From: a virus | Taxonomy: Duplodnaviria > Heunggongvirae > Uroviricota > Caudoviricetes | IMG/VR virus record: IMGVR_UViG_2563366961_000002 | Coordinates: 1 to 35,248 of that record | Strand: one strand, 5' to 3' | Length of the DNA: 35,248 nt | Shown: piece by piece, positions 5,464-13,100 of the stretch | Layout: each line of letters begins with the position of its first letter | Numbering within the stretch: position 1 is the first letter of the stretch | Notes under the pieces: model-generated | What the model was told of the DNA's origin: nothing | Seen by the model: only the letters and a program-made list of their open reading frames with translations | The model's database searches: none | Program-made: the position numbers and the translations under genes

Positions 5464-5580
5464 GTGTTGGTTCAGTTGGTTCAGTTGGTTCAATTTGTAA
5501 AGAGTATTGTTTTATAAGGATTTTATTCTTTTTATTGAACCAACACTGAACCAACAACACGGTATTTTGAACCAACACAA
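5464..5580. repeat. iteron origin-like module A
   Basis: 3 tandem TTGGTTCAG/A at 5467-5493, about 40 bp AT-rich spacer, 3 inverted TGAACCAAC at 5536-5577; immediately 3' of primase. Confidence 0.7.
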
Positions 5581-5897
5581 TGTGACTGAATTGATGCGCA
5601 CAACACCTGGCTGGCATCAGAGAGTGTTTTACGAGACTTTCGTAAAATCCTGTGTACAAGGGCGTGACGTTTTTGAAAGTGAGCACTACGAAATTTTCGT
5701 AGTTCAGAAAACAGCCTCTGAGAAGTTGTTATGCCTGTTCAGCAAACCATCCGCATAGCTGATCGCGAATCAAATTACCAATGGAGCCAGAAGCAAGGGC
5801 AGAACTGAAAAGCGCCTGCCGTGAAGAGTAATGCGACACCATAAATATAGTTTTTAGAGTCCATAAAAAACCTGTCAAAACCTGACACACAGAACGA

Positions 5898-5929
5898 TGC
5901 CACCAGCTACTGAGCGGTGGCATTTTTTT
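5898..5929 (+). terminator. putative rho-independent terminator
   Basis: TGCCACC-loop-GGTGGCA hairpin followed by T7. Confidence 0.5.
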
Positions 5930-6024
5930 GTGCTATTTGTTTCATATTTTGCAATTACGATGATGAATATTGCGATTTGTGAAACTATAATAACTGTTGT
6001 TTTATACAGTTCTAAGGGGGCGTT

Positions 6025-6186
6025 ATGGCTATTTCAGTAAAGCCGGTATTGATAAGTGAGAAGCAAATGGAAGCGATAAAGAAAATTCAGGAAGAGCAGC
6101 GTAAAAAATCAGGAATTGGAGTAGCGCCAACTCTGCATGAAATTGCACGAGGGTTAATAGATAAGGCGCTGGCAGGCTGTATGTGA
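6025..6186 (+). CDS. small ribbon-helix-helix-like DNA-binding protein (53 aa), absent from ORF track
   Basis: ATG 12 nt after AAGGGGG; MAISVKPVLISEKQMEAIKK... beta-strand then two helices. Confidence 0.45.
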   Translation: MAISVKPVLISEKQMEAIKKIQEEQRKKSGIGVAPTLHEIARGLIDKALAGCM

Positions 6187-6202
6187 AAATGGATGGCATC
6201 GC

Positions 6203-6664
6203 ATGGAACTAAAATTTATTGATAACCCTGTGCGATTACAGGCCTTTCTTAACGAGCCAGGCAATACCGAAAATATTGTTGAGCCGGGGCACACGTACTA
6301 CATCAAGCCTGATGCGGTATATCTCGGCATCTACGAAGGATTAGTGCTGGCTGGCGTTCATGAAGTGCGTAACTTCTGGCATAGCGTTGTTGAATGCCAT
6401 GCGGTGTACGACCCCGGATTCCGTGGTGAATATGCACTGCAAGGACATCGATTATTCTGCAAATGGCTTCTCGAAAACTCACCATTCCTTAACAGCATTA
6501 CCATGGTTCCTGACACCACGAAATACGGACGGGCAATTATCCGTTTGCTTGGCGCTACCCGTGTTGGTCATCTTGATGATGCTTATATCAGATGTGGTAA
6601 ACCCGTCGGCGTAACGCTTTATCAGTTAACTCGGCAACAATATAAGGAATTCAGCGAATGTTAA
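6203..6664 (+). CDS. hypothetical protein (153 aa)
   Basis: ORF whose stop overlaps next start (ATGTTAA). Confidence 0.5.
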   Translation: MELKFIDNPVRLQAFLNEPGNTENIVEPGHTYYIKPDAVYLGIYEGLVLAGVHEVRNFWHSVVECHAVYDPGFRGEYALQGHRLFCKWLLENSPFLNSITMVPDTTKYGRAIIRLLGATRVGHLDDAYIRCGKPVGVTLYQLTRQQYKEFSEC

Positions 6665-7335
6665 TTACCCATATAGCTTATAAACATCTCAATCGTGCCG
6701 TATACGAAAAAGGCGGTGATGGTGGTGCCTCTAAAGCTCAGGCGAAGGCCCAGCAGCAGGCAATTGATTTGCAGCGCGAGCAGTGGAATACGGTGATGAA
6801 TAATCTCAAGCCGTATGCAGAAGTCGGATTGCCTGCTTTACAACAACTACAAGGACTGATGACTCTGGAAGGGCAGAATAAAGCCGCGAATGATTTCTTT
6901 GGTTCTGGTTTATATAAAACACAGGCAGATCAGGCCCGTTATCAGAACCTTGTCTCAGCAGAAGCTACCGGGGGGCTTGGCTCAACAGCTACCAGTAACC
7001 AGTTATCTTCCATTGCGCCCATGCTTTATAACAATTGGCTCAGTGGGCAAATGCAAAATTATGGAAACCTGCTAAATGTCGGGATGAATGCGGCATCAGG
7101 GCAGGCAACAGCAGGGCAAAACTACGCCAATAATACCGGACAACTCTTGCAGGGGCTTGGCGCTATTCGTGCAGGTCAGGCGCAGCAGCCATCCAGTCTT
7201 GCGCGTGGTATTGGTGGGGCGGCATCAGGCGCTTTAGCGGGTGCGCAACTTGGTTCCGTTGTTCCGGGTATAGGTAATGTCGCCGGGGCTATTGGTGGTG
7301 GGCTTATTGGTCTTGTTGGGGGGCTTGGATTCTAA
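6658..7335 (+). CDS. Gly/Gln-rich protein with hydrophobic Gly-zipper C-terminus
   Basis: AAGGA upstream; C-terminus GIGGAASGALAGAQLGSVVPGIGNVAGAIGGGLIGLVGGLGF; stop overlaps next start (TAATG). Confidence 0.55.
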   Translation: MLITHIAYKHLNRAVYEKGGDGGASKAQAKAQQQAIDLQREQWNTVMNNLKPYAEVGLPALQQLQGLMTLEGQNKAANDFFGSGLYKTQADQARYQNLVSAEATGGLGSTATSNQLSSIAPMLYNNWLSGQMQNYGNLLNVGMNAASGQATAGQNYANNTGQLLQGLGAIRAGQAQQPSSLARGIGGAASGALAGAQLGSVVPGIGNVAGAIGGGLIGLVGGLGF

Positions 7336-8079
7336 TGGCGACATGGCAACTTGGCGGGCTGCCTAGCATGGCACCGCAAAATGATAATGCTCCTCGTTCT
7401 TCCGTTCCTCAGCCTGTGCAGTATCAGCAGCAGCCAAACGTAGGTTTAATGGCGCTACAGGGGCTAAGAGGCGTTGCTGAGATTAATCAGCAGGCACGTC
7501 AACAACAGCGTAAAGCAGAGTTTCAGAAAGCATATGCCGGGGCTTTTGAGTCTGGAGACAGAAACAAAATGCGCAGTCTTATTTCTGAGTATCCAGAAGA
7601 ATTTGAAAGCGTTCAGAAAGGGATGGGCTTTATTGATGACGACCAGAGAAATTCTATTGGTCATCTTGCGACTAGTGCTCAAATCGCATCTTCGCTCGGA
7701 ACTGGGGCATTTGGAAAATTCATAGCAGATAACGAAGATGAAATGCGTCGTTTGGGAATTTCTCCTGAGTCTGTTGCCGAAATGCATGTTAATGATCCAC
7801 AGGGATTCCAGCGGCTTGCTGGTAGTATGGCACTGTTTTCTCTCGGTCATGAGAAGTACTTCGATATCAAAGATCGAATGGAAGGTCGGGATATTGAGCG
7901 TGGCAAGTTGGCAGAGACGATCCGCAGCAATCAAGCCGGAGAAGCACTTCAGGCGAGAGGGCAGGATATTAGCCGAGCAAATGCGTTAACGTCAGCATAT
8001 GCACCAACAGCCGCAATGCAGAATTACAATCAATACGCGCAAATGTTAAAGGCGGATCCAGAGGGGGCTGCGGCATTTG
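7335..8079 (+). CDS. hypothetical protein, 3' end interrupted by IS1
   Basis: Frame runs into IS1; stop codon TAA 8082-8084 is supplied by IS1 terminal bases. Confidence 0.5.
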
Positions 8080-11596: not shown

Positions 11597-11786
11597 ACCA
11601 ACCCCCTTTAGCGTTGTTTAGAATGGCAATCATCATATATCCAAGACATGGCATTTGGTACATAGCTTGGGTCGGGATTTCAAGTCCGCTCCCAGTTGAT
11701 GGGGCCGTTACAGTACGCGCATATCCGCTTTATGTGAAACAGGAAGATTTTTCTGATATCACTGCCACAGCAAAACACCAATTTCG

Positions 11787-12095
11787 TGACCAGTACGCGC
11801 GCGAGGGGTATCAGTTGCAAAATTTTTTGCAACTGCGTCCGACCAGTACGCACACGATGGCGGGGGATACCATAAAACTGTTCTCTACATGAGACAGAGT
11901 GGTGGTGATGTGTTGATTATCGGCGTATATGCGCACAGGACGCGCTATGACGATGTTTTATGCGGGTACACCAATCACATGTATCTGGTGTGATAAATCG
12001 CGTTACATGACCTCTCATGTTGTGCTGGTGGTTATCACGACTTTCTGAATCTGGCCTTTGCCTGATATTTTGCGACAAGTACGCGCGCGTAGCAT
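11787..12095. repeat. cluster of GACMAGTACGCGCGCG motifs plus a near-perfect palindrome
   Basis: Motif at 11787-11805, 11841-11856, 12074-12095; CAGTTGCAAAATTTTTTGCAACTG at 11812-11835. Confidence 0.5.
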
Positions 12096-12117
12096 CGACA
12101 GCATACACATTGGATAT

Positions 12118-12339
12118 TCATTTTGTGACCAATGCGATAAGTAGCGGGATAAGAATTGATAAAATCAACAGGCCGATGATCCACTTTTGATTTTCACTGG
12201 CCTTATCTCTATTTTCATCAATCTTATCAATAATTCGACGCTCCAATCCGTGCATATCACCGCGAATGGCAATCATCTCATTGCGAACATCAGGGAAGTG
12301 GTTGGCTTGATGTTCAATGTGTGGCGTTCTGCCTTTCAT
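12118..12339 (-). CDS. small protein with C-terminal TM anchor (XhlA-like architecture)
   Basis: ATG preceded by GAGGA; coiled-coil-like N-terminus, C-terminus WIIGLLILSILIPLLIALVTK. Confidence 0.5.
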   Translation of the reverse strand: MKGRTPHIEHQANHFPDVRNEMIAIRGDMHGLERRIIDKIDENRDKASENQKWIIGLLILSILIPLLIALVTK

Positions 12340-12418
12340 ATCTGATCCTCACCTATCGTCACTACCTGCTGGTGTATAAAGGTATTGGCCCAAGCAACTT
12401 TCCAATGGGCACTCATGT

Positions 12419-12874
12419 TTATACGCTGACCTTACAATCAATCACTGCTTTTAGCTTTTCAGCATTGCTTCCCTGACGCTTCCACGCGCTGTAAATATCT
12501 TTATCCCACGCTTTACCAGCTTTTGTTTGATAGCCTGCTTCATTGATCCGTTCAGCTATCACACGCCCATTATCAAATCCCTGTTGGATGGTATCGGCAA
12601 TGATCTTTATAACTGCCGTTTCGTTATATGGTTTTGGTGGGATGTTCGGCTTTCCGGCAATAAGCGACGCAGCGGCTTTTTCCATGCGCTCCACCAGCCC
12701 AAGCATTCGTGAATCAATAGACTTTTCCGGCTGCCCCAGCTTCATGCGAATCGCATCAACAAGCCAGGAGGTTTTATCTCCTCCAGAAGCGAGAACAGAC
12801 CGATTAAACTCATCCTGCAATTCAGATGGGATGCGGAACGCGACCAGATTAGATTTGCTCATTGCAAAGACCAT
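12419..12874 (-). CDS. putative RHH-like DNA-binding protein (about 147-151 aa)
   Basis: N-terminus SNLVAFRIPSELQDEFNRSVL resembles RHH beta-strand/helix; lies next to iteron module B; start could be ATG 12874 or 12862. Confidence 0.45.
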   Translation of the reverse strand: MVFAMSKSNLVAFRIPSELQDEFNRSVLASGGDKTSWLVDAIRMKLGQPEKSIDSRMLGLVERMEKAAASLIAGKPNIPPKPYNETAVIKIIADTIQQGFDNGRVIAERINEAGYQTKAGKAWDKDIYSAWKRQGSNAEKLKAVIDCKVSV

Positions 12875-12974
12875 ATCAGTGAGTAATATCCATACAGTAT
12901 ACCACTGTATAACACTGTTATACGCTCAAATATCAGCCAGAAAATAACGGACCAATCACAAATCTATCGCTGTG

Positions 12975-13100
12975 TTGTTGGTTCAGAGCTGGGCTGTGTT
13001 GGTTCAAAATGAGTTGATGTTGGTTCAATATTTCAGAAAAAACACAATAAAAACAACAATCTTTACAAATTGAACCAACTGAACCAACTGAACCAACACC
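12975..13100. repeat. iteron origin-like module B, inverted relative to module A
   Basis: 3 spaced GTTGGTTCA at 12977-13029, AT-rich spacer, 3 tandem TGAACCAAC at 13070-13096; mirror image of 5464-5580. Confidence 0.7.

Follow-up and report, generated by a model that had tools for sequence, protein, structure and literature searches.

A replication origin of the phage-inducible chromosomal island type, probably split into two mirror-image modules by a block of genes

The replication origin of the Staphylococcus aureus pathogenicity islands (SaPIs) was reportedly described by Ubeda and colleagues in 2007. SaPI Rep proteins are self-loading helicases. Directly after rep, repeats flank an A+T-rich centre, and these are read by the C-terminal winged-helix domain of the protein (Qiao et al. 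2022, PMC9371898). The phage-inducible chromosomal islands (PICIs) of Gram-negative bacteria have a SaPI-like origin layout, and a pri-rep-ori segment of EcCICFT073 replicates a plasmid (Fillol-Salom et al. 2018, PMC6092414). EcCIMP1, the PICI of Escherichia coli MP1, is mobilised by the P22-like helper phage Kapi1, and its excision and transduction occur only with this helper; the description of EcCIMP1 mentions neither an origin nor repeats (Pick et al. 2025, PMC11773190). Here, we analysed a DNA stretch of 35,248 nucleotides (IMG/VR record IMGVR_UViG_2563366961_000002; hereafter, the window), which carries an island of the EcCIMP1 type inserted at tRNA-Thr between proA and yagU. Two mirror-image repeat modules of this island, A and B, are probably (at a rough probability of 0.72) the two halves of one replication origin, which is read by the island's own primase-helicase Pri-Rep and is split over 7.4 kb by a block of phage-derived genes.

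Both modules consist of three repeats, an A+T-rich spacer, and three opposed repeats, as the original prediction had proposed. Module A (5466–5576, with repeats on both strands) lies directly 3′ of the primase gene, its first repeat starting 26 nt after the pri-rep stop codon at 5440. It opens with a tight triple of GTTGGTTCA on the plus strand at a 9-bp pitch (5466–5492; starts at 5466, 5475, and 5484), followed by a 43-bp spacer of 83.7% A+T (5493–5535), the proposed melting site, and a loose triple of GTTGGTTCA on the minus strand (5536–5576; reading TGAACCAAC at 5536, 5547, and 5568) with spacings of 11 and 21 bp. Module B (12977–13097) is the reverse complement of this arrangement. It comprises a loose triple of GTTGGTTCA on the plus strand at a 21-bp pitch (12977–13027; starts at 12977, 12998, and 13019), a 43-bp spacer of 81.4% A+T that terminates in a conserved CTTTACAAAT (13028–13070), and a tight triple of GTTGGTTCA on the minus strand at a 9-bp pitch (13071–13097; reading TGAACCAAC at 13071, 13080, and 13089). 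The repeat word given originally needs one small correction, in that the third tight copy of module A terminates in A, not G.

The repeats are confined to the two modules. All 12 occurrences of the 8-mer TTGGTTCA in the window fall within A and B, compared with 1.5 expected by chance, and none of 100 shuffled sequences reached 12. Copies of the 9-mer with one mismatch outside the modules number seven in the window, which is the chance level. The A+T content of both spacers ranks in the top 0.4–0.7% among 43-nt windows. Comparing the window with itself revealed a 55-nt inverted repeat with 96% complementarity (5459–5513 versus 13050–13104), which corresponds to the tight triple and the adjoining 20 nt of spacer. 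The remainder of the spacer and the stretches separating the loose repeats have diverged between A and B. The earlier picture of two homologous mirror-image modules with diverged spacers is hence borne out by the repeat mapping, as is their separation of ~7.4 kb, 0.77 kb of which is a copy of IS1 (8075–8847).

Folded as single strands, the modules outperform their own shuffles, strongly in the case of A (z = −7.5) and modestly in the case of B (z = −2.8). We did not count this as separate evidence, because opposed repeats alone produce a hairpin. No RNA family of Rfam matches module A or module B, and the scan for DnaA boxes and integration host factor (IHF) sites returned no convincing site, each pattern giving a single one-mismatch match (at 5651 for the DnaA box). 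About 30 nt to the right of the loose triple of module A lies the motif CTGGCTGG (5607–5614, plus strand), which is found at the equal relative position in relatives of several genera. A further repeat of ~20–28 nt containing GAC(A/C)AGTACGCGCGCG occurs in four copies at 11776–11860, 12062–12093, and 13452–13483, on both sides of module B.

The gene preceding module A, pri-rep (2681–5440, plus strand), encodes 919 amino acids with Pfam matches to Zn_Ribbon_Prim, Toprim_3, and DUF927. The protein is organized in a zinc-ribbon and TOPRIM primase, a DUF927 helicase, and a predicted C-terminal DNA-reading domain. Residues 8–362 share 33% sequence identity with the primase of P4 alpha (E = 3e-41), and no homology to P4 alpha was found outside this segment. 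Residues 404–814 match the SaPI replication initiator/helicase chain 8tch (E = 1.5e-11), as well as Cch of the staphylococcal cassette chromosome SCCmec (PDB code 5dgk) and the NCBIfam family Cch1. Judged by its sequence, Pri-Rep is a P4-alpha-like primase joined to a predicted self-loading helicase of the SaPI-Rep/Cch type. The last 150 residues were modelled with AlphaFold from an alignment of 42 sequences. The mean predicted local distance difference test (pLDDT) score is 75, rising to 85–90 over residues 80–140, and the modelled C-terminal domain is closest to the C-terminal region of SaPI Rep. Within it, the segment GRGYQRKSPRIQGRQINVYV (residues 887–906, encoded at 5339–5398 on the plus strand) is proposed to read the repeats. 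As in PICIs and SaPIs, Pri-Rep ends in a predicted DNA-binding domain, the putative specificity of which matches the repeats.

We scanned relatives of the primase for repeat clusters, taking one genome per species, and obtained 55 loci with a module A from other Enterobacterales. The second module abuts the first in 27 of them, the entire array lying within ~340 nt of the pri-rep stop codon. It is found 0.2–9 kb downstream in 11 loci, whereas the remaining 17 show only module A within the available flank of ≤10 kb. Deriving the commonest 7-mer independently for each half yielded an identical repeat in both halves at 37 of 39 two-module loci.

The repeat word itself differs between lineages and falls into eight classes (GTTGGTTCA, GTTGTCTCA, TAACCCGT, GTCGGTTCA, GGTCGGTTT, TACCCGAC, TAACCCAC, and TTATCCCA), in all of which module B bears the lineage-specific word. 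The word switches in both modules together, along with a ~20-residue motif at the C terminus of the primase. All 36 GTTGGTTCA-type loci retain the core of this motif, GRGYQRKSPRI-xGRQxNVYV, which is replaced by QGRV-RE.DGRQIRVYV, RKTLRI.DGKQPRFVV, KRKALKRI.GGKQHTFY, or QIRTPRLKHLNNARPWTYV in other classes. The sharpest case is the GTTGTCTCA group. Its primases are ~80% identical to that of the window, a level also seen among relatives of the same class, yet the motif and both modules have switched. In module B from 15 loci of different genera, the 9-mers and the CTTTACAAAT adjoining the tight triple are conserved, whereas the 13-bp inter-repeat stretches keep their length but differ in sequence, as does most of the spacer.

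Both modules belong to a single element. Intact relatives of the island carry, in their left part, int, a helix-turn-helix (HTH) regulator gene, AntA/B, DUF4222, Ash, small open reading frames (ORFs), the 919-residue primase, and module A. The right part follows with a P22-like block (DUF2824, gp7, gp20, and gp16-like), leftward ORFs, module B, perC, and a pRiA4b-ORF3 gene. A PICI has int, alpA, pri-rep, and ori in one direction, a specific att site, and a helper phage that induces and packages it. At tRNA-Thr, the intact relatives have int, the HTH gene, pri-rep, and perC; the window copy lacks the int/alpA end because IS1 occupies positions 1–100. A circular relative of 12,152 bp with one primase and one integrase contains both modules 1.9 kb apart, and in EcCIMP1 they are 8.5 kb apart, both inside the mapped 19,963 bp. 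The IS1 copies in the window leave the primase ORF uninterrupted and none of the 12 repeats damaged.

In layout, each half is a standard SaPI/PICI origin unit, i.e., opposed sets of short repeats around a 43-bp A+T-rich stretch. Upon helper induction, Pri-Rep would bind the 9-mers via its C-terminal domain, assemble on both sides of the A+T-rich stretch, and melt it. Pri-Rep would then load itself as a helicase and prime synthesis. Module B is very probably a functional binding array for Pri-Rep. It is slightly more likely than not to contribute to replication, be it by firing as a second site or by helping in cis like crr; when separated, it may fire alone or may support A as crr supports ori in P4. 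In most relatives, the two halves adjoin and occupy ~280 bp directly after pri-rep, and in the lineage of the window the late/accessory gene block of the island lies between them, similar to the situation of ori and crr in P4. Of the alternatives offered originally, the suggestion that the modules are ori and crr of one replicon is thereby supported: there is one element and one primase, the modules are adjacent in most relatives, and the repeat word tracks the primase C terminus.

The arrangement of module B relative to its neighbours also suits a mainly regulatory operator, at which Pri-Rep would control perC and/or the leftward 151-amino acid gene, or which would pair with A to limit copy number, without any role in initiation. 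B is located in the divergent intergenic region between these two genes, and a TATAAT-like box after its tight triple is conserved along with the triple. We consider this explanation unlikely. The scan for sigma-70 promoters found no promoter-like site at module A or module B, and in other lineages perC follows A instead of B, or B is placed between A and the next gene. Moreover, B retains the full anatomy of an origin unit, including the A+T-rich spacer of fixed 43-bp length, which an operator would not need. A regulatory role of B does not exclude a role as an origin. Within the sequence available, a third of the relatives show no detectable module B. These 17 of 55 loci, together with the partly degenerate B repeats of some others (L017, L015, and L023), would be accounted for if B were a decaying, functionless duplicate of A, a pseudo-origin left by rearrangement. 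The six 9-mers of B are, however, intact in the window, in EcCIMP1, and in relatives of other genera despite the diverged sequence between them, and B has the repeat word of its own lineage in each of the eight classes, so that we give such decay little credence.

That the modules are mutually inverted had also raised the idea of terminal inverted repeats that bracket cargo, i.e., of a mobile or invertible cassette carrying the gene block. The variable length of the intervening DNA (1.9–8.6 kb in the E. coli islands) and a recombination breakpoint inside the B spacer (see below) agree with it, and as a description of the window lineage the term is adequate. As an explanation, it is very improbable and largely refuted by the predicted inversion junction, which is absent from all 5,426 complete E. 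coli genomes as a full-length match (the native junction is present in 365), and by the 27 of 38 two-module relatives in which the modules adjoin directly and enclose no cargo. In addition, no transposase or invertase accompanies the block except the unrelated IS1, which has its own ends, and the repeat word tracks the primase and not any recombinase. Throughout the surveyed family, the tight triple of B lies on the side away from pri-rep; therefore, the mirror layout is a family constant and not the product of an inversion. The remaining proposal, origins of two separate but related satellites side by side, draws on the tandem islands that exist at the tRNA-Thr site, where a second island also follows in the window. 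It is contradicted by the single primase, by the 12-kb one-integrase circle and the mapped EcCIMP1, both of which contain the two modules, and by their adjacency in most relatives, and we regard it as refuted, with a next to negligible chance of being correct. Two further candidates were rejected. A RepA-type plasmid iteron origin has direct repeats of 17–22 bp, DnaA boxes, and a helicase-free Rep, whereas the repeats here are opposed 9-mers and the initiator is a primase-helicase. A P4 alpha-type protein combines a primase with a D5-like helicase and the repeat-binding alpha C-terminal domain, whereas only residues 8–362 of Pri-Rep are homologous and its helicase is DUF927/Cch-like.

The proposed split origin shares several features with the described PICI and SaPI origins. 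It starts immediately 3′ of pri-rep with module A (module B of the window being 7.5 kb away), its repeat sets are opposed around an A+T-rich centre with 3 + 3 9-mers per module, and the helicase and C-terminal regions of Pri-Rep resemble those of SaPI Rep (8tch) by sequence and fold. The described PICI origins, in contrast, form one compact region. That of EcCICFT073 contains 11 TCTACC repeats in several opposed sets inside the first ~220 bp after pri-rep, whereas the present origin has two complete mirror-image units, which in the lineage of the window have 1.9–9 kb of genes between them. The EcCICFT073 primase also belongs to another family, Pri-Rep being a DUF927 protein with a P4-alpha-like primase domain. 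SCCmec Cch (5dgk) has a similar DUF927 helicase core and C-terminal domain, but without the fused TOPRIM primase, and we know of no comparable two-module origin described for it.

The closest parallel to the separation is found in P4 (NC_001609), the alpha protein of which has the homologous N-terminal primase domain (33% identity). In P4, one repeat word occurs in two clusters, with crr directly 3′ of alpha and ori 4.7 kb away; the window likewise has the same repeat at two separated sites, one directly 3′ of the replication gene. In the annotated record, the crr units comprise a tight pair at a 9-bp pitch, a ~35-bp A-rich spacer, and opposed loose copies. P4 alpha reportedly binds to ori and crr with looping between them, and P4 replication requires both sites in cis. 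None of the components is new, be it the origin unit, the type of initiator, or the concept of a split origin. In the literature, we found no description of a PICI origin as two mirror-image units with kilobases of genes between them, and the pairing of motif and repeat appears to be new.

EcCIMP1 itself shares with the window the tRNA-Thr insertion site (proA-yagU), the gene order, a closely related primase, and both modules. It differs in that the window copy is cut by IS1 at its left end, contains IS1 inside the gp20-like gene, and differs in the version of the gene block and of the left part of module B that it carries. A 10-bp indel accounts for the loose triple of module A being spaced 21/21 in EcCIMP1 versus 11/21 in the window. 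The two islands (EcCIMP1 is locus L083) are identical rightward of and including CTTTACAAAT to the end of perC, whereas to the left of CTTTACAAAT they are unrelated apart from the three repeats, indicating a recombination breakpoint inside the module B spacer (13028–13070). The left half of EcCIMP1 module B resembles that of a Leclercia island (L057). With the divergence between the window and EcCIMP1 located inside the B spacer, the modules may act as homology anchors for the swapping of gene blocks.

When the primases are placed on a neighbour-joining tree, which lacks support values and is likely to be affected by recombination, loci of the split and adjacent states are intermingled, and the sister of the window is an Enterobacter locus of the adjacent type. 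Module B, perC, and the gene block occur in three lineage-dependent orders among the related loci L006–L064 (B-perC-block, block-B-perC, and perC-block-B). These are cyclic permutations of one another and may point to a tandem duplication in the origin region with subsequent deletion. A more speculative extension, which we hold to be doubtful, is a mirror-symmetric origin pair, the symmetry centre of which is a preferred site for satellites to capture or exchange helper-derived genes, and the halves of which cooperate across 2–9 kb, for example by Pri-Rep hexamers that bridge A and B. If so, replication would copy the enclosed late/accessory genes first or amplify them, and the origin halves would be conserved anchors for block swaps between islands.

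The two modules provide EcCIMP1-type satellites, which about one in ten complete E. coli genomes carries, with a concrete origin map that their published description lacks. A PICI-type origin can, by this reading, work as halves that are kilobases apart, or at least persist in this form under selection, which connects the origin design of SaPIs and PICIs with the ori/crr arrangement of P4, long known but little understood. The pairing of C-terminal motif and 9-mer over eight classes amounts to a natural specificity table. Such a table could be used to study or re-engineer origin recognition by self-loading helicases and to predict cross-replication between co-resident satellites.

The gene block between the origin halves (5615–12976) was assigned from Pfam and PHROG matches, and its gene order is that of the related islands L003 and L004 and of EcCIMP1. 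It starts with a small ORF (6025–6186), a P22-like DUF2824 gene (6203–6664), a gp7 gene (6658–7335), and a gp20-like gene (7335–8084) that is cut by the IS1 copy, followed by a gp16-like/transglycosylase gene (8857–10962). Three ORFs on the minus strand complete the block. The first (10982–11596, 204 amino acids) weakly matches a PHROG of SieA-like superinfection-exclusion proteins (E = 4e-4), and the corresponding interval of the sister island L004 contains an Abi-family gene. The second (12118–12339) is followed by the 151-amino acid ORF (12419–12874), the left neighbour of module B. The latter had been called a ribbon-helix-helix (RHH) gene, and its N terminus looks ribbon-helix-helix-like by eye, but no significant Pfam, annotated PHROG, or NCBIfam match supports the label. 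The PerC-like neighbour predicted on the other side holds, as the gene immediately to the right of module B (13134–13415, plus strand) matches Pfam PerC with E = 3.7e-30.

The central part of the block (6203–10962) encodes virion DNA-delivery parts, the type of which varies by genus. E. coli islands carry P22 gp14/gp7/gp20/gp16-like ejection proteins, whereas the blocks of L023 (14632–18042) and L057 (16198–18912) encode tape-measure proteins. That of L062 contains an SLT transglycosylase (16258–18012) and a P4 Beta-like protein (13614–14729), and that of L037 (13918–16125) a baseplate hub and a gpV-type spike. Such variation suggests that EcCIMP1-type satellites carry injection proteins matched to the type of their helper phage.

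The window contains three copies of IS1, i.e., the full copy at 8075–8847, which interrupts the gp20-like gene, and partial copies at the two edges (1–100 and 35139–35248), the right one of which truncates ecpC. Inside the ash remnant of the island, Rfam detects a C4 antisense RNA, an immunity RNA of the P1/P4 type (175–262, plus strand; 80 bits versus a gathering score of 45). The second island (~15000–28400) may be another satellite. As annotated in a near-identical locus of E. coli, it contains a major capsid protein gene (21695–22723), a baseplate-like gene, and a leftward integrase gene (27023–28357). Near yagU/ykgJ, the Rfam family IS009 matches at 29675–29875 (plus strand) with 193 bits.

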